A stretch of 24,000 nucleotides of DNA from an uncultured Lachnospiraceae bacterium (GTDB lineage: Bacteria > Bacillota > Clostridia > Lachnospirales > Lachnospiraceae), in NCBI GenBank assembly GCA_946609985.1, contig CAMOCB010000008.1, positions 48,739-72,738 on the forward strand. Direction: 5' to 3'. The notes beneath the pieces are model-generated. The model did not search any database. It had not been told where the DNA came from and worked only from the letters and a program-made list of their open reading frames with translations. The position numbers and the translations under genes were made by a program. Shown piece after piece: positions 1,392-14,810 of the stretch; positions within the stretch are counted from its first letter, which is position 1; every line of letters begins with the position of its first letter.

Positions 1392-1466
1392 AGAAAATAG
1401 GGACTATGCAAATAGGGACGTTTCTGTTTTGCACATATGCAAAACAGAAACGTCCCTATTTGCATA
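1392..1466. repeat. REP-like units: a truncated 13-nt fragment (1392-1404) plus a head-to-head doublet, L(+) 1407-1433 and M(-) 1438-1464
   Basis: 1405-1433 (tatgcaaatagggacgtttctgttttgca) is the exact reverse complement of 1438-1466, with a 4-nt centre CATA. This gives a 29-bp perfect inverted repeat. The 27-mer is the same as units A and D further downstream. Confidence 0.9.
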
Positions 1467-2687: not shown

Positions 2688-2780
2688 GTTTACAAAAGAT
2701 GTCACTGGGGACGGGTCCCAGTGACCTCATTTCACAAGAAGTTCACAAAAGTTGTCATTGGGAACCGTCCCCGTGGCATC
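2688..2780. repeat. Two ~40-nt direct-repeat copies (2688-2725 and 2741-2777), each carrying a variant of the REP core. Copy 1 forms a hairpin at 2701-2725.
   Basis: gtttacaaaagatgtcactgggg aligns with gttcacaaaagttgtcattggga. Copy 1 has GGGGACGG at 2707-2714. Copy 2 has GAACCGTCCCC at 2762-2772, whose reverse complement GGGGACGGTTC is identical to 12748-12758 in REP unit E. The copy 1 stem is gtcactggg/cccagtgac with a 7-nt loop. Confidence 0.6.
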
Positions 2781-2792
2781 AAAAGGAGAAAT

Positions 2793-3752
2793 ATGGTTAA
2801 TAGAGAGGTTAAAGAGATTCCGGTATATGTCTTTATGGGATTTCTGGGTAGTGGTAAGACTACCTTTGCAATAGATACGCTTATTAAGCAAGGATTTACG
2901 GAGAGTACTCCGACACTTCTTCTCGCTTGCGAGGATGGAGAGGTGGAGTATGACGTGGAGGAGCTTGAGAAGGAGAATATCCATCTGGAGTTTATTAATG
3001 AAGAAACTCTGTCACAGGATCATTTGCTCGAGCTTGGTGCAAAGTATAATCCTGAAAATGTTATCGTAGAATATAATGGAATGTGGGAGCTGGATAGGCT
3101 CTTCCAGGTAAAAGTTCCAAATGGCTGGACAGTGGTTCAGGTTATCTCATTTGTTGATGCAACTACCTTTGATGTATATGTAAATAACATGAAGAAGATA
3201 ATGATGGATCAGCTGAGAAATGCCGATATGATTATCTTCAATAGATGTGATGAGAATACTAAGACTGCGGAATATAGAAGAAGCATCAGAGCCGTAAATA
3301 GACGTGGCCAGGTTATCTTCGAGGATAAGTCAGGACGTCCGCTTCAGGTGGAGGAGGAAGTTATTCTTCCTTATGATCTAGAACAGCCTGAGATAGTTCT
3401 TGAGGAAGAAGATTTTGGTATCTTCTATATAGATGCAGCGGATAATCCAGATAAGTACCTAGGCAAGAAGATAAAGTTCAAGGCTCAGTTCCATAAGCCA
3501 TCTAATTATGAAGACGGTGAATTCGTTCCAGGAAGATTTGCAATGACTTGTTGTGCGAACGATATAGCATTTATTGGCTTTAAGGCATATTACAAGGGTA
3601 TTGCCGCATTTACGGATAGAGACTGGATAATTGTAGAAGGTACTATCAAGAAGGAATTCTATCCTGAGTTCCAGGGCGAGGGACCTGTAATTTATGCAGA
3701 TAGTGTAGCGATAACAGGACCTGCTAAGGATGATCTTGTATACTTCAATTAA
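2793..3752 (+). CDS. Divergent G3E-like P-loop NTPase fused to a CCxxD-containing C-terminal domain (DUF1980/TIGR03943 C-terminal-like, recalled from memory)
   Basis: The likely start is ATG 2793 (RBS AGGAG at 2784-2788), not the GTG at 2721 used in the ORF track. Walker A GFLGSGKTT and NRCD (NKxD-like) are present, but there is no CxCC motif. The C-terminal part reads GRFAMTCCANDIAFIGF...DWIIVEGTI...PVIYADSVAITGPAKDDLVYFN. Confidence 0.7.
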   Translation: MVNREVKEIPVYVFMGFLGSGKTTFAIDTLIKQGFTESTPTLLLACEDGEVEYDVEELEKENIHLEFINEETLSQDHLLELGAKYNPENVIVEYNGMWELDRLFQVKVPNGWTVVQVISFVDATTFDVYVNNMKKIMMDQLRNADMIIFNRCDENTKTAEYRRSIRAVNRRGQVIFEDKSGRPLQVEEEVILPYDLEQPEIVLEEEDFGIFYIDAADNPDKYLGKKIKFKAQFHKPSNYEDGEFVPGRFAMTCCANDIAFIGFKAYYKGIAAFTDRDWIIVEGTIKKEFYPEFQGEGPVIYADSVAITGPAKDDLVYFN

Positions 3753-8783: not shown

Positions 8784-9842
8784 ATGAATGTTGCAGTTAT
8801 TACACTTATTGTCATCGGTATTATAGCTATCGTAGTAAGCTTTGTTCTTACACCGAAGGAAGAGGAAAAGGTAAATCCTAATATTCCTACAGAGCTCAGT
8901 GATGCTGACAAGAAGCATTTGGAAGGTCTTGCTGATAAGCATATGAAGGAATACAGCAAGAAGAAGATAAAGGAAAATGTATCAAACAGCATTAAAGAAG
9001 CTATTGATGAAGAAATTAAGAATAGTGATAAGGCAATTGGTGAAAAACTCGCTGAGAATCTTGGAAAGATAGATGAGAGAGCAACTGAGGATACTCAGAA
9101 GCTTGAGAAGTACTATAACGAAGTTACAGAAGATATCAATAAGAATAAGGCTGAGCTTGAGGACCTGTACAAGAAGGTCAGCGATAAGGAGAAGGATATC
9201 AAGACATCTCTTGGAATCGTTGATGAATATAAGGAAGGCCTTGATAAGCTTAAGTCAGAGATTCAGGATATGGATTCACAGCTTACAGCTAAGAGAGAAG
9301 AGGCTGAGAAGCTTGCAGCTGCAGCAGCAGCTAGTGCAGCAGTAGCAGCTACTGTTCAGGCAGAGGCTCCAGCGGAGACTCCAAGTAGTGAGGCTGAGAC
9401 AGAAATCCTTAAGGGACCTGTTGAGTTCGTTAATGAAGATATGATAGCTGAGCAGGAGAAGGAATCCAAGTTCGGCAAAAAGAAAAAGAGAAATAAAAAG
9501 AATAAGAAGAAGGTTGCAGAGGCTGCTAAGGAAGAAGCTGCAAAGGAAGAAACTGCAGTAGAAGAGGTTGCGGAAGCTCCTGAAGAGGAAGCTAAGCAGG
9601 AAGAAGCTCCTGCACAGGAAGAAGTAAAGGAAGAGGCTTCTTCAGAAGATTCTTCAAAGGTTGAAACTCCTGATCTTAATGAGATACTTGAGGCTGAGGG
9701 AATAAACCTGGCTGATGGTGATACGGCTGGAAATATAATGGAAATGTTCAACGCTGGACTGAGTATCATAGAGATATCTAAGGTTCTTGGAATTGGTGTT
9801 GGTGAGGTTAAAGCTATTATAGATAAACAGCAGGGAGAGTAA
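8784..9842 (+). CDS. Hypothetical membrane-anchored coiled-coil protein, E/K/A-rich, with a C-terminal HTH-like segment
   Basis: N-terminal TM helix VAVITLIVIGIIAIVVSFVL, a long charged heptad-like region, a basic patch KKKKRNKKNKKK, and a C-terminus GLSIIEISKVLGIGVGEVKAIIDKQ. I recognise no family with confidence. Confidence 0.6.
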   Translation: MNVAVITLIVIGIIAIVVSFVLTPKEEEKVNPNIPTELSDADKKHLEGLADKHMKEYSKKKIKENVSNSIKEAIDEEIKNSDKAIGEKLAENLGKIDERATEDTQKLEKYYNEVTEDINKNKAELEDLYKKVSDKEKDIKTSLGIVDEYKEGLDKLKSEIQDMDSQLTAKREEAEKLAAAAAASAAVAATVQAEAPAETPSSEAETEILKGPVEFVNEDMIAEQEKESKFGKKKKRNKKNKKKVAEAAKEEAAKEETAVEEVAEAPEEEAKQEEAPAQEEVKEEASSEDSSKVETPDLNEILEAEGINLADGDTAGNIMEMFNAGLSIIEISKVLGIGVGEVKAIIDKQQGE

Positions 9843-9847
9843 ATCAT

Positions 9848-10432
9848 ATGAGAAAATATATGCTTAGAGGTATCGGTATAGGTATTCTTATTGGAGCCGG
9901 TGTTATGTACGGTGCATTTGCCACAATCGGTACTGAGGATAAAGGTAAGAATGATAAGGCAGTAGTTGAGACAACAGAGGAAGAGACAACCGAGACAACT
10001 ACTGAAGAAGAAACTACTGAGGCTACTACAGAAGCTACCACTGAGGCAACTACTGAAGCGACCACAGAGGAGGAAACCACTGAGGCTACTACAGAAGCTA
10101 CCAATGAGGAAGTAACTACTGAAGCAACTACAGAGGAAACCACTGAGGCTCAGCCTGAGGAAGAGAAGACCGAGGACAAAGAGGAGAAGAAAGAGGACAA
10201 GAAGGAAGACAAGGCTTCTGGCGATAAGGAGATAACAGTTACTTCCGGAATGACTTCTGAAAATATTGCTTCATTACTGGAGCAGGCAGGACTTGTTGAT
10301 TCTGCAACTGAGTATAACTCATGGCTTATCTCAAAGGGATATGATTCAAATCTGCACATTGGTACATTTAAAATCAAGTCTGGTGCAAGCAACGAAGAGA
10401 TAGCTAAGATCCTTACTACTCAGGGAGAGTAA
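9848..10432 (+). CDS. Hypothetical membrane-anchored protein: TM helix, T/E-rich repeat linker, and a C-terminal YceG/MltG-N-terminal-like (LysM-like) domain
   Basis: The ATG lies 5 nt after the upstream stop. TM helix GIGIGILIGAGVMYGAFATIG, then TTEA/TTEE repeats. The C-terminus ITVTSGMTSENIASLLEQAGLVDSATEYNSWL...GTFKIKSGASNEEIAKIL resembles the small N-terminal domain of MltG/YceG. There is no lytic transglycosylase catalytic part. Confidence 0.6.
   Translation: MRKYMLRGIGIGILIGAGVMYGAFATIGTEDKGKNDKAVVETTEEETTETTTEEETTEATTEATTEATTEATTEEETTEATTEATNEEVTTEATTEETTEAQPEEEKTEDKEEKKEDKKEDKASGDKEITVTSGMTSENIASLLEQAGLVDSATEYNSWLISKGYDSNLHIGTFKIKSGASNEEIAKILTTQGE
9968..10150 (+). repeat. Imperfect 12-nt (4-codon, T-T-E-A/E) tandem repeat inside the CDS
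   Basis: actactgaagct-type units are repeated about 15 times (ETTEEETTETTTEEETTEATTEATTEATTEATTEEETTEATTEATNEEVTTEATTEETTEA). Confidence 0.85.
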
Positions 10433-12506: not shown

Positions 12507-12510
12507 ACTA

Positions 12511-12599
12511 TGCAAATAGGGACGTTTCTGTTTTGCACATATGCATATAGGGACGGTTCTGTTTTGCATATATGCAAATAGGGACGCTTCTCATTTGCA
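12511..12599 (+). repeat. REP-like cluster: three direct (+) units, A 12511-12537, B 12542-12568, C 12573-12599
   Basis: A tgcaaatagggacgtttctgttttgca; B tgcatatagggacggttctgttttgca; C tgcaaatagggacgcttctcatttgca. Linkers are CATA and TATA, on an exact 31-bp period. The cluster starts 4 nt after the tsf stop. Confidence 0.9.
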
Positions 12600-12622
12600 T
12601 ATATGATAAATGAATAGTAACG

Positions 12623-12660
12623 AATGAGTCATAAGGTGTATAGCCTTATGGCTCATTTTT
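12623..12660 (+). terminator. Rho-independent terminator of rpsB-tsf, downstream of REP cluster A-C
   Basis: About 14-bp stem aatgagtcataagg / ccttatggctcatt (one G-U pair) with a 7-nt loop, then a TTTTT run. Confidence 0.8.
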
Positions 12661-12709
12661 GCTATTTAGGAAAAAATGCAACGATTTGTTGCGTTATACA
12701 AACTAATTG

Positions 12710-12767
12710 TGCAAATAGGGACGTTTCTGTTTTGCACATATGCAAATGGGGACGGTTCTCATTTGCA
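12710..12767 (+). repeat. REP-like doublet: D(+) 12710-12736 and E(+) 12741-12767
   Basis: D tgcaaatagggacgtttctgttttgca (identical to A, L and M); E tgcaaatggggacggttctcatttgca; linker CATA. Confidence 0.9.
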
Positions 12768-12794
12768 CATATCAAGTGAAGGAGGGGGATTATT

Positions 12795-13535
12795 ATGCCA
12801 AGAACGGCAAGAAAACAAGGAAAAACGGGATTCTATCATATTATTACTAGGGGAAATGCTAAACAAATACTATTTGAAGATAACAAAGATTACAGCTTTT
12901 ATATTTATTTGATTAGCAAATTTAGTAGAGAAATGGGCATAGCAATTAATGCTTATTGCCTTATGGACAATCATGTACATTTATTAGTGTATGATCCAGT
13001 GTTTAACATTTCACAAATGATGAAAAAAATCGATGTAACATACGCGAAATATTATAATGAAAAGTATGAGAGAGTGGGACATCTGTTTCAAGGGAGGTTT
13101 CTCAGTGAGGAAATTGATAATGAATCATATCTTTTGACAGCATTTAGATATATATTGCAAAATCCTGAAAAGGCTGGGGTGGCTATTGCATCTGAATATA
13201 AGTGGAGTAGTTACAGATATTATGATACAATTAACTCGTTTGTAGACACAAGTGTTTTCACCGCTTTAATAGGTGATTGGAAAAACTATACTACTTTTAT
13301 TTCTTTACAAAATAGTGATAAATGTATGGAATTTGATACATTATCCAATGATGATGATTGGGCACTTACTGTTTTAAGGAATACAATTAGTGTTAGTAGT
13401 GGTACGGCTTTACAAAAATTAAGCAAACACGAAAGGGATAAATGTATTCGTAAGCTAAGAGATAAAGGACTTACAATTACTCAAATTGCAAGATTTACAG
13501 GTTTAAATAGAAATACTGTTTCTCAGGCAAAATAA
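12795..13535 (+). CDS. REP-associated tyrosine transposase (RAYT)-like protein, IS200/IS605 TnpA (HUH, Y1) superfamily, with a C-terminal HTH extension
   Basis: RBS GGAGGGGG at 12781-12788. FYHIITRGN, HUH motif LMDNHVHLLV (H60, H62), GHLFQGRF, and the catalytic-Tyr helix FRYILQNPEKAGV (Y119). C-terminus KGLTITQIARFTGLNRNTVSQ. The gene is AT-rich relative to its neighbours. Confidence 0.8.
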   Translation: MPRTARKQGKTGFYHIITRGNAKQILFEDNKDYSFYIYLISKFSREMGIAINAYCLMDNHVHLLVYDPVFNISQMMKKIDVTYAKYYNEKYERVGHLFQGRFLSEEIDNESYLLTAFRYILQNPEKAGVAIASEYKWSSYRYYDTINSFVDTSVFTALIGDWKNYTTFISLQNSDKCMEFDTLSNDDDWALTVLRNTISVSSGTALQKLSKHERDKCIRKLRDKGLTITQIARFTGLNRNTVSQAK

Positions 13536-13539
13536 AATA

Positions 13540-13628
13540 TGCAAATAGGGACGGTTCTTATTTGCATATAGGCAAAAGAGAAACGTCCCCATTTGCATAT
13601 GTGCAAAAGAGAACCGTCCCTATTTGCA
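13540..13628. repeat. REP-like cluster: F(+) 13540-13566, G(-) 13571-13597, H(-) 13602-13628
   Basis: F tgcaaatagggacggttcttatttgca; rc(G) tgcaaatggggacgtttctcttttgcc; rc(H) tgcaaatagggacggttctcttttgca. Linkers are TATA and TATG on the 31-bp period. The cluster starts 4 nt after the RAYT stop. Confidence 0.9.
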
Positions 13629-13647
13629 TAGTACTAATAAGGAGAAG

Positions 13648-14712
13648 ATGATGGTAGATTATACAGAGATACTTACAAATGTTGATGTGGATGCAGTGCT
13701 TATAACGGATCCATATAATTTAAGGTACTATACTGGCTTCCGTGGTGGAGAGGGCGTGGCGCTTATTTCGAAGGGTTCAAAGATACTCATAACTGACTCG
13801 AGGTACACAGAAGCTGCTGGAAAGGAATGCTATGAAGGCTTTATGGTAAGACAGTTTGGAAATGGTATCTCCACGATAAGTATCATCAAAGAGTACATTT
13901 CTTCTGATGGTATAAATACTCTTGGCTTTGAGGATATGTCTATAAGCTATAGTGATTATCAGAAGTTTTCAGGTGGGCTTGGATGTGAAATGAAGCCTAT
14001 AAAGGACGCACTCCTTATTCCAAGACAAATTAAGTCGCCTGAGGAGATAGAACTTCTCCGTGAGGCAGAGCATATCGGCGATATGGCATTTGACGATATT
14101 CTTAGTATATTAAAGCCTGGTATGACCGAGCTCGAGGTTGCAGCAGAGATAGAATACAGTATGAAAAGACATGGTGCAGAGGGACTTTCCTTTGATACGA
14201 TTGCGGCGTCTGGGGTAAATTCTTCCATGCCTCATGCGATTCCTTCTGATAAGAAGCTAGAAAATGGCGATTTTCTTACAATGGATTTTGGGTGCATTTA
14301 TAAGGGGTATTGCTCTGATATGACCAGAACTGTTTGTATAGGTAAGGCTAGTGATGAGCAGAAGAAAGTTTATAACATAGTTTTATCTGCACAGCTTTCA
14401 GTGCTTGAAAATCTTAAACCTGGTATGATGTGTAAGGATGTAGATAGAATAGCAAGAGATTACATAAATGCTCAAGGGTATGGTGATTACTTTGGTCATG
14501 GACTGGGGCATGGCGTTGGACTTTACATTCACGAGTCCCCAGCATTTAACACTCGCGATACTTCGATTGTTAAGCCGGGTATGATAGAAACAGATGAGCC
14601 GGGAATATATTTGCCAGGTAAATTTGGTGTTCGTATAGAAGATATGATTCTAATTACAAAAAATGGTTGTGAACCACTTGCAAGATCACCTAAAGAACTT
14701 ATTGAACTCTAA
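13648..14712 (+). CDS. M24-family Xaa-Pro aminopeptidase/dipeptidase (PepP/PepQ-like)
   Basis: RBS AAGGAG at 13639-13644. The start is ATG 13648 or 13651; the ORF-track TTG at 13624 lies inside REP unit H. Creatinase-like N-terminal domain. Metal-ligand motifs DFGCIYKGYCSDMTRT, HGLGHGVGLYIHE, EPGIY, RIEDMI. Confidence 0.9.
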   Translation: MMVDYTEILTNVDVDAVLITDPYNLRYYTGFRGGEGVALISKGSKILITDSRYTEAAGKECYEGFMVRQFGNGISTISIIKEYISSDGINTLGFEDMSISYSDYQKFSGGLGCEMKPIKDALLIPRQIKSPEEIELLREAEHIGDMAFDDILSILKPGMTELEVAAEIEYSMKRHGAEGLSFDTIAASGVNSSMPHAIPSDKKLENGDFLTMDFGCIYKGYCSDMTRTVCIGKASDEQKKVYNIVLSAQLSVLENLKPGMMCKDVDRIARDYINAQGYGDYFGHGLGHGVGLYIHESPAFNTRDTSIVKPGMIETDEPGIYLPGKFGVRIEDMILITKNGCEPLARSPKELIEL

Positions 14713-14716
14713 AATG

Positions 14717-14810
14717 AGTAAATAGTGTCGTTTCTATTTTGCTCAAAAAGTGAGTAAATAAGAACCGTCCCTATTTGCATATATGCAAAAGAGAACCGTC
14801 TCTATTTGCA
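14717..14810. repeat. REP-like cluster: I(+, degenerate) 14717-14743, J(-) 14753-14779, K(-) 14784-14810
   Basis: I agtaaatagtgtcgtttctattttgct; rc(J) tgcaaatagggacggttcttatttact; rc(K) tgcaaatagagacggttctcttttgca. It has the same (+,-,-) architecture as F-G-H and starts 4 nt after the peptidase stop. Confidence 0.8.

Follow-up and report, generated by a model that had tools for sequence, protein, structure and literature searches.

The window analysed here, 24,000 nt of contig CAMOCB010000008.1 from an uncultured Lachnospiraceae bacterium (assembly GCA_946609985.1), contains thirteen units of a short imperfect palindrome, grouped in clusters, and a gene for a Y1 HUH transposase of the type associated with repetitive extragenic palindromic (REP) elements (RAYT/TIRYT; 246 aa, 12795..13535 of the window, + strand), which lies between two of these clusters. 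We consider the units to be REP-like extragenic hairpin repeats that belong with this gene, as in the arrangements called REPtrons or TIRtrons, and we give this explanation a probability of about three in four. The units are dispersed over many contigs of related genomes, their arms covary around a conserved loop, and homologous transposase genes are systematically flanked by inverted copies of them. By analogy with related enzymes, the neighbouring single-stranded DNA (ssDNA) transposase probably spreads the repeats.

A first-pass annotation of the same DNA, from which the transposase gene was absent, had taken the units for imperfect palindromes of one dispersed family and had compared them with REPs and with bacterial interspersed mosaic elements (BIMEs). 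This reading is supported by the dispersal and the spacing of the units and by their RAYT-type neighbour; in fact, the analogy with REPs is stronger than the annotation could know, because a Y1 gene of RAYT type sits inside the densest cluster.

The transposase and its association with the repeats

The protein encoded at 12795..13535 matches Pfam Y1_Tnp (E 2.8e-14). Its AlphaFold2 model (pLDDT 85), compared with the PDB by Foldseek, is closest to 4er8_A, the complex of E. coli TnpA_REP with a REP hairpin (E 3.7e-7, TM 0.73 on the target), and the TnpA proteins of IS608 and ISDra2 come next. H60-V61-H62, Tyr119 and N123-P124 are invariant in an alignment of the window protein with 20 homologues (alignment A1, 21 sequences); the resulting Y---NP signature, with an Asn four residues after the Tyr, separates REP-associated (class-2 TnpA_REP) from IS200/IS605 transposases (PMC6006769, PMC3333891). 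The C-terminus contains a helix-turn-helix (HTH) region at about residues 205-244, predicted to be helical (pLDDT 80-90), in which G225, Q230, R233, T235 and G236 are invariant in A1. HTH_23 matches residues 217-244 with E 4.9e-4 and 20.3 bits, under the gathering score of 24.6, and weak HTH matches are seen in the same 21 proteins, to HTH_23 in 5 and to HTH_28 in 1. There are about 2000 homologues, the closest of which are about 245 aa long, come from rumen Lachnospiraceae, including Butyrivibrio isolates, and are annotated as "transposase" or, by JGI, as "REP element-mobilizing transposase RayT". No tnpB-like open reading frame (ORF) is found beside the gene in the window. Because the gene between the clusters is of RAYT type and has 4ER8 as its best fold match, we regard the units as a REP/BIME-like family that stands beside its own RAYT.

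The position of the units around the gene is ordered. Eight of the 13 window units lie less than 300 nt from it, + units on its 5' side and +,-,- units on its 3' side, so that the gene is flanked by inverted copies: D and E (+) upstream, G and H (-) downstream. Classical REPtrons have this geometry. The same arrangement was looked for at homologous loci, 3 of which were fetched by exact protein and 80 by a metagenome scan, with proteins 32-55% identical to that of the window. Of the 69 homologous loci that have at least 100 nt on each side of the gene, 43 carry the core GGGAC[GA] on both sides, and in 41 of those 43 a + core on the upstream side is combined with a - core on the downstream side. 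The 300-nt flanks of the gene contain 5.4 cores per kb, compared with 0.91 per kb elsewhere. At two of these loci, L051 and L053, the cognate units are also spread over the surrounding 20 kb.

Units at homologous loci share (G)GGGACGGTTCT, and their arms differ from locus to locus yet stay complementary: the classes GAGTCA/TGACTC, GTGTCA/TGACAC, GTGCCA/TGGCAC, AAGACA/TGTCTT and TGGACA/TGTCCA were found in addition to the TGCAAA/TTTGCA of the window. Repeat and protein also diverge together. In the genome RUG12167 the same locus between tsf and pepP holds a second allele of the transposase (79% identity), and the units around it have GAGTATA/TATACTC arms, a class whose arms are also carried by window units I and J.

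The two RUG12167 alleles have 98% and 79% amino acid identity (L010 = asm_14 and L025 = asm_29, compared with window 12604-13563), and both stand beside tsf/pepP sequence. Each is flanked by its own arm class, and both contigs seem to end near unit clusters. They could come from a mixture of strains in the bin, or they could be two modules in tandem.

Units of the window

The consensus of the unit, TGCAAATAGGGACGKTTCTSWTTTGCA, was searched over the 24-kb window with up to 3 mismatches allowed. It matches 12 sites, where 100 dinucleotide-preserving shuffles give an expectation of 0, and these sites are exactly the places and strands previously assigned to twelve units; the thirteenth, unit I, is degenerate, with 6-9 mismatches to the other units, yet recognisable. 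Several properties in the first-pass annotation were found again on inspection. Units A, D, L and M have the same sequence over all 27 nt; start-to-start distances within clusters are 31 nt, with the I-J junction (36 nt) as the sole exception; the linkers between units are CATA, TATA or TATG; and TA stands directly 5' of the unit, in unit orientation, in 11 of the 13 units, with TG in D and I. All clusters lie between ORFs, and their first unit is 4-18 nt past the stop codon of glgB, tsf, the transposase gene or pepP.

The direct array A-B-C opens with unit A (12511..12537, +), 5 nt after the tsf stop codon, and continues with B (12542..12568, +) and C (12573..12599, +), each with 1 mismatch to the consensus. 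On its 3' side there is a terminator-like hairpin (12622..12663, +), formed by a 16-pair stem and then a T-run, which probably either ends the tsf transcript or insulates the transposase module that comes after it. This hairpin is conserved 5' of the transposase gene in L025; bin.117, a related genome without the module at this locus, has another terminator there. Units D (12710..12736, +) and E (12741..12767, +) form the 5' flank of the transposase gene, and E ends 27 nt before its ATG. On the other side of the gene, F (13540..13566, +) begins 5 nt after the stop codon and is followed by G (13571..13597, -) and H (13602..13628, -); the latter is the inverted partner of the upstream units and ends 20 nt before the pepP ATG at 13648. 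The cluster past pepP is composed of I (14717..14743, +), which has sister-class arms GAGTAAA...TTTGCTC and a core mutated to GTGTCG, of J (14753..14779, -), a hybrid with the 5' arm TGCAAAT and the 3' arm ATTTACTC, and of K (14784..14810, -). Finally, L (1407..1433, +) and M (1438..1464, -), both with 0 mismatches, make a perfect (+,-) doublet, which the orthologous loci L018 and L029 have kept at the corresponding site.

Other units, not in the earlier annotation, belong to different arm classes. The truncated 5' half of a sister-class unit, GAGAAAATAGGGAC (1392..1404, +), is broken just past its core and abuts the TA flank of unit L; a remnant of the 3' arm that matches it, TACTC, is found after unit M at 1467-1471. 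L018 and L029 read GAGTATATAGGGAC/TATGCAAAT at the place of this half-unit. A third arm class is represented by two units. The first, TGTCACTGGGGACGGGTCCCAGTGAC (2700..2725, +), has the arms GTCACT/AGTGAC in the register of the family and lies between the stop of a cobW-like gene (2685) and the ATG of the next gene (2794). The second, GTCATTGGGAACCGTCCCCGTGGCA (2754..2778, -; reverse complement TGCCACGGGGACGGTTCCCAATGAC), has degenerate arms; read in unit orientation, it runs on into aacttttgtgaac, a tail specific to this class. The same third class occurs in L005, L009 and L019.

The stretch is present at 100% identity in independent public assemblies, namely GCA_002368685.1, one ENA scaffold and AUXO012275715.1. 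Taken together, these three carry units A to K at the same relative positions, and therefore the arrays are not artefacts of assembly. An exact search with the transposase sequence, looking for further polymorphism, gave only 100%-identical copies of the window, and a protein search with the exact Tsf of the window found no record.

Anatomy of the unit

The unit is longer than was first described. Among 79 units of the TGCAAA class, the two preceding bases are TA (51) or TG (27) and the two following bases are CA (49) or TA (29). The linkers CATA, TATA and TATG are thus the 2+2 outer bases of two neighbouring units, and the 31-nt phase consists of units that abut with zero spacer. The distances implied by the earlier description, a 27-bp unit with a 4-nt linker, are correct, but the real unit has 31 nt, with 8-bp arms T[A/G]TGCAAA...TTTGCA[C/T]A. 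Twenty (+,-) doublets are bounded on the outside by TA..TA (10), TG..CA (4), TG..TA (4) and TA..CA (2), never by TG..TG or CA..CA; as the flanks of doublets never form a direct repeat, the outer two bases are part of the palindrome and do not come from duplication of a target. The unit of about 31 nt is therefore an 8-bp stem closing a 15-nt loop that contains the conserved core (A/G)GGGACG(G/T)TTCT.

Covariation was measured on 101 distinct transposase-flanking units, in an ungapped alignment anchored on the core only (A2). The 8 arm pairs are complementary in 78.6% of cases, compared with 44.5% in shuffles (0 of 500 shuffles as high) and 29-47% in slid registers. Both sides vary in 8 of 8 arm pairs, with a covariation score of 0.773 (shuffles: 0.205). 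Column information is 0.14-0.55 bits in the arms, and the core columns are invariant. Since the GGGGACGGTTCT core is common to all while the arms differ and covary, the units are hairpins with a conserved loop. When folded as ssDNA, the L-M (+,-) doublet gives a perfect 29-bp hairpin (-34.6 kcal/mol, z -16.9); in the same kind of fold, F of the F-G-H cluster pairs with H and G forms a hairpin of its own.

Units within an array differ from each other by 3.3 mismatches and units of loci 11 kb apart by 2.9. Recent local duplication is not expected to give this pattern, because array neighbours differ as much as distant units do, and an origin of the arrays by recent tandem duplication is accordingly unsupported. 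The pattern of similarity is compatible with separate insertions beside existing units; an older duplication, followed by gene conversion that homogenised the arrays, is also possible.

Dispersal, spacing and orientation

An exact-pattern scan, with one genome per species, returned 50 stretches, about 40 of which come from three metagenome-assembled genomes (MAGs) of rumen Lachnospiraceae: Eubacterium sp. RGIG4997, bin.117 and RUG12167. Exact matches to the strict pattern number at least 29 in RGIG4997, 33 in bin.117 and 15 in RUG12167 (77 in total, on many contigs), the genomes being incomplete. The family is thus not confined to the window, a possibility that the first-pass annotation had named as fatal to it. 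Where the stretches of bin.117 and RUG12167 overlap the window they are 92-96% identical to it. In the stretches of the three MAGs together with the window, 113 of 129 units (88%) lie outside ORFs of at least 120 aa, though such ORFs make up 89% of the sequence.

A distance of 31 nt is the modal spacing between neighbouring units, defined as units within 150 nt of each other, and is found in 31 of 67 pairs. The preference for 31 nt proposed from the window therefore holds genome-wide as a mode; it is not a rule, since (+,-) pairs also occur at offsets of 42-74 nt. By orientation, 31 nt is found in 9 of 17 ++ pairs, in 5 of 16 -- pairs (two more are at 29 nt) and in 17 of 34 +- pairs, among which the 42-74 nt offsets recur. 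No (-,+) neighbour pair occurs within 150 nt, against 34 (+,-) pairs. Single units are the commonest state (22 clusters), followed by +- (19), ++- (13), ++ (6), ++-- (2), +++++ (2) and +++ (1); the ++- clusters, which are +,-,- on the other strand, are the recurrence of an architecture noted earlier in the window. The loci behind these counts are not independent of each other, and despite this the 31-nt mode, the recurring architectures and the lack of (-,+) pairs are clear.

The same core, with other complementary arms, is present in genomes of Bacillus, Neobacillus, Desulfosporosinus, Pelotomaculum, Thermohalobacter and Clostridium. Its form in non-Lachnospiraceae loci is AAAT(A/G)GGGACGGTTCT (L013, L038 and L050 of Bacillus sp. 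FJAT-27225, and L014, L027, L045, L031, L023, L039 and L040). A fragment of a transposase homologue lies 170 nt from the unit of L040. In L014 and L038 a doublet GGGACGGTTCT...AGAACCGTC(C/T)(C/T) is followed by a T-run and resembles an intrinsic terminator.

Turnover between related genomes

Comparison of relatives for presence and absence of clusters, which the first-pass annotation had proposed, revealed gains, losses and differences in copy number. One difference concerns the transposase locus itself. In bin.117 (L033 3709-3777) the whole 1.1-kb module that corresponds to window 12507-13647, composed of A-B-C, the hairpin at 12622-12658, D-E, the gene and F-G-H, is missing, and the tsf-pepP gap contains just a different, ordinary terminator, GGTGCCAGTAGG...CCTACTGGCACTTTTTTT. 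Because the two intergenic sequences are non-homologous, this difference is a replacement and not a clean insertion.

Other events affect single clusters. A 57-nt insertion of the third arm class, after ACATA, is present in L019 (7112-7172), where L047 (5881-5885) has the empty site; copy number varies in a composite cluster (L005, L009, L049); comparison of L041 with L043 reveals a doublet that sits inside another unit and has 11 nt (tatgcaaatgg) duplicated at its edge; and the three-unit cluster of L008 (1421-1542) is cut down to TGCAAATAGGGA in L034 (7128-7168).

At four separate sites a unit or doublet of the TGCAAA class, its TA or TG flank first, stands directly after a GAGTA-class unit that is broken past the core. 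The junctions, with a slash at the break as in the half-unit above, are GGGAC/TA, GGGACGG/TA, GGGACGG/G-TG and GGGG/TG (window 1392-1404, L018, L029, L043 6484, L036 7374, L001 6037). From the sequence of these junctions, the loop beside the core is suggested as a preferred point of insertion or cleavage. Taken as a whole, the polymorphism junctions comprise one insertion after ACATA, one deletion between AGGGA microhomologies and several units broken past the core, and what they indicate about a cleavage or target site is only suggestive.

Proposed mechanism and alternative explanations

By analogy with E. coli TnpA_REP and IS608, the protein would bind and cleave the units and would have made the arrays. 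A unit would fold into a hairpin when the DNA is single-stranded, for example at a replication fork; the transposase would read the core in the loop through its catalytic domain, its C-terminal HTH or both; and it would cut and rejoin DNA at or beside units, with the result that units are created, moved or deleted. One preferred site would be the end of an existing unit, which would generate abutting 31-nt arrays and tail-to-tail (+,-) doublets; a second would be the loop of an existing unit, which would generate nested units. Since the units land just past stop codons, they are very probably transcribed into 3' untranslated regions (UTRs), and they may have a secondary role there as RNA hairpins.

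Several observations weigh against this explanation. Folded as ssDNA, a lone unit forms a weak hairpin (-3.7 kcal/mol, z -2.2). REP_Tyr_transpos (NF047646), the top NCBIfam family for the protein, is matched with 54 bits and misses its cut-off of 80. By sequence alone 4ER8 is barely a match (E 0.48), and a PDB search with the profile of the transposase family found nothing at E 0.01 or better. The 5' GTAG tag of canonical REPtrons is absent, the 5' flank of the unit being TA or TG; the bases before the core, which are ATAG or ATGG only in the lineage of the window, lie inside the loop and lack conservation across the family (column information 0.13-0.55 bits). Units also persist without a neighbouring gene, as bin.117 still holds at least 33 of them elsewhere despite the absence of the module between tsf and pepP, although the gene could lie in another part of this incomplete genome. 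Gene copies per genome were viewed through the fetched genome stretches, and the counts of pairs and clusters are non-independent and not a census, since the loci are partly orthologous and were all picked for containing the pattern. In the literature we found no biochemistry on TIRYT or subclass 2.1 proteins.

The explanation that comes next is that the gene and its inverted flanking units form an autonomous insertion sequence (IS) that has the units as its ends; the dispersed units would then be solo ends, or miniature derivatives, that its movements left in the genome, and not a population of repeats served by one resident gene in single copy. The geometry of + upstream and - downstream units in 41 of 69 loci is what such an element would have; moreover, the window and RUG12167 have the module, which bin.117 lacks at the same locus, the gene occurs in unrelated neighbourhoods in other genera, and many homologues lie on very short contigs. 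We nevertheless hold it to be unlikely. The ends of IS200/IS605 elements are not inverted repeats, and their transposases have about 130-150 aa and Q, not N, near the tyrosine, whereas the protein found here has the RAYT signature and scores 26 bits with the transpos_IS200 model, whose cut-off is 55. No fetched locus contains a second copy of the gene, save the two diverged alleles at one site, and the units greatly outnumber the gene copies seen; the non-homologous intergenic sequence of bin.117 does not provide a clean empty site.

One could also regard the units mainly as RNA elements of the host, hairpins for mRNA stability or termination beside which the transposase gene is incidental. 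Transcription is very probable for units 4-18 nt past stops, and for A-B-C, which lies between the tsf stop and the terminator-like hairpin; the (+,-) doublets are very stable hairpins, and the core copies of Bacillus form a hairpin and then a T-run. In the window, no unit is followed by a T-run and none was called as a terminator. Furthermore, the 12-nt loop is conserved in both orientations to transcription, so that RNA would show two different loops, and a role in RNA alone leaves unexplained why the transposase gene is flanked by units across homologues of 32-55% identity. As an explanation of the whole family we find this improbable. A secondary role is another matter: the units may also act as RNA hairpins, which is plausible and compatible with repeats that belong with the transposase.

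Binding sites in duplex DNA, held on one helix face by the 31-bp register (about three turns) and occupied by the HTH domain or a host protein in a regulatory or nucleoid role that selects the register, could be proposed from the 31-nt mode in all orientations, the conserved C-terminal HTH and the invariant core with drifting arms, but they are very improbable, because abutting units, whose linkers are outer base pairs (TA/TG 5', CA/TA 3'), fully explain the period, half of the neighbour pairs are spaced otherwise, single units are the commonest state, and arm covariation points to an intrastrand pairing that a duplex site does not need.

Comparison with known systems

Di Nocera et al. (2013, PMC3733652) describe TIRYTs and TIRtrons, RAYT-like genes flanked by inverted repeats with the motif GGGGWSAS; some of the TIRtron repeats are self-complementary, of moderate abundance and grouped as dimers or clusters. 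Quentin et al. (2018, PMC6006769) equate TIRYT with TnpA_REP subclass 2.1, especially its 2.1.2 branch with HTH_23, HTH_28 or DnaA-like C-termini, and equate subclass 2.1 with RAYT group 1. This group is reported from Clostridia, and its flanking 16-mers are repeated only about 12 times (Bertels et al. 2017, PMC5581495). Subclass 2.1 ranks second in size among the subclasses of Y1 transposases, present in 14.9% of strains, and neither automatic nor manual search found a REP-like structure beside its genes (PMC6006769). In the literature searched, the term TIRYT is used only in PMC3733652 and PMC6006769, and we found no description of a TIRYT-type system in Firmicutes.

The system described here resembles TIRtrons in its long RAYT-like protein, with Y---NP and a C-terminal HTH that weakly matches HTH_23/HTH_28, and in the flanking of the gene by inverted repeats with a G-rich motif. 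The core GGGGACGG of the family fits GGGGWSAS in 7 of 8 positions, with G for A at position 7 (the units of the window have mostly AGGGACGK), and GGGGACAG, found at many homologous loci, fits it in 8 of 8. By these features only, the protein would be placed in 2.1.2. The differences are that the published TIRtron examples we saw are from Proteobacteria and Acidobacteria, the words Firmicutes and Clostridia being absent from the text of PMC3733652; that the units of the present family abut in 31-nt arrays; and that, unlike what is reported for subclass 2.1, the repeat beside the gene forms a stem-loop, in which the arms covary strongly and a loop of 12 nt is conserved.

Canonical REPs with their RAYTs (PMC2817692, PMC3333891, PMC3479197 and PMC8266576) are likewise short extragenic palindromes, dispersed 3' of genes and clustered in mosaics, and they too include a Y1 HUH gene that stands between inverted copies of the repeat belonging to it, with repeat and protein co-diverging. 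The unit, at 27-31 nt, falls within the 20-40 nt given for the imperfect palindrome of a REPtron. On the other hand, the conserved motif is in the hairpin loop here and not beside the stem, and from lineage to lineage it is the stem that changes and the loop that stays constant, whereas a classical REP family is identified by its stem. The protein has an extra HTH domain with respect to canonical RAYTs and scores under their NCBIfam cut-off. Copy number for this class is at least 15-33 per genome, against about 600 REPs in E. coli (PMC3333891). Like REPINs (Bertels and Rainey 2011, PMC3116915), the family has as its commonest multi-unit form the inverted pair that makes one long hairpin (the 19 (+,-) clusters; 13 of 20 matched doublets have a 4-nt loop), and one relative orientation is strictly dominant; it differs from them in that direct arrays (++, +++) and ++- triplets are also frequent.

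With IS200/IS605 elements such as IS608 and ISDra2 the system shares the catalytic fold and, by analogy, the expected chemistry, that is, recognition of ssDNA hairpins with cleavage and rejoining by one tyrosine. It departs from them in the longer protein, the N in place of Q after the Tyr, the lack of tnpB, the inverted-repeat ends and the fact that multiple identical copies were not seen. Because the GTAG tag is lacking and the NCBIfam cut-off is missed, the system is best described as REPtron-like in its working and resembling TIRtrons.

Other identities were tried and rejected. CGTC-tagged REPs came into question because the reverse complement of the core contains CGTC, but in those repeats the CGTC is terminal and unpaired, stems are 8-9 bp, loops 4-5 nt and a CCA tail is present, while here CGTC is in the loop. 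The units are not intrinsic terminators, as none has a T-run; near the clusters, only the separate hairpin at 12622-12658 looks like a terminator on the strand of the genes. They are not a CRISPR array, since 4 nt separate the 27-nt cores, unique spacers tens of nt long are lacking and orientations are mixed. A miniature inverted-repeat transposable element (MITE) of IS630/Tc1 type with TA target-site duplication is excluded by doublet flanks that extend the palindrome and form no direct repeat. An assignment to IS200/IS605 is contradicted by the score of the IS200 model, the N at Y+4, the absence of a tnpB-like ORF and the absence of an identical second copy in the fetched loci. At gathering thresholds Rfam has no family in the whole window, and a literature search for the core as a string returned only unrelated primer sequences. 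The first-pass annotation had allowed that the family could turn out to be a known annotated element; it is not an annotated MITE or operator array, but it does fit a thinly published class, the TIRtron/TIRYT systems of TnpA_REP subclass 2.1.

Other genes of the window

The CobW/G3E-family GTPase at 1555-2685 contains a very long insert rich in His, Asp and Glu at about residues 217-283 (for example HHHHHHDHEEHDHHHDHDDHEHEHHHHDHEHEHHHH), which looks like a tract with which a metallochaperone would bind metal. The gene after it, at 2794-3752, is also cobW-like. Two adjacent genes at 8784-10432 encode low-complexity proteins, one of 352 aa rich in Lys, Glu and Ala and one of 194 aa with repeated TTEATTEA tracts.

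Significance

The kind of system is known, and the basic picture of REP systems is unchanged. What is new here is a representative in Lachnospiraceae, and Firmicutes-wide, the hairpin with a loop motif supported by covariation, the zero-spacer arrays and the orientation rule. The strong hairpins are placed in the 3' UTRs of the core genes tsf, glgB and pepP, and the units could serve as strain markers. Such repeats could also fragment metagenome assemblies: many homologues are on contigs of 1-4 kb, and the two RUG12167 contigs appear to end near clusters.

What is known of REP elements and of their domesticated transposases comes almost wholly from Proteobacteria. We tentatively propose, as a broader idea that we think may well prove wrong, that the GGGGACGGTTCT-loop hairpin could be the missing DNA substrate of the subclass 2.1/TIRYT clade and would define a third, Firmicutes-wide superfamily of REP-like repeats beside the GTAG-tagged and CGTC-tagged ones, in which a Y1+HTH protein would read the loop motif, the stem would drift and old copies would be the targets, at their ends and in their loops, of new ones. 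Such targeting, if true, would explain the zero-spacer 31-nt arrays, the strict (+,-) rule and the nested units. The loci described here offer subclass 2.1 and the TIRYTs a concrete candidate substrate, with a short stem and a 12-nt conserved loop, and they provide polymorphic sites, together with a natural record of covariation, in Clostridia that are abundant in rumen and gut.

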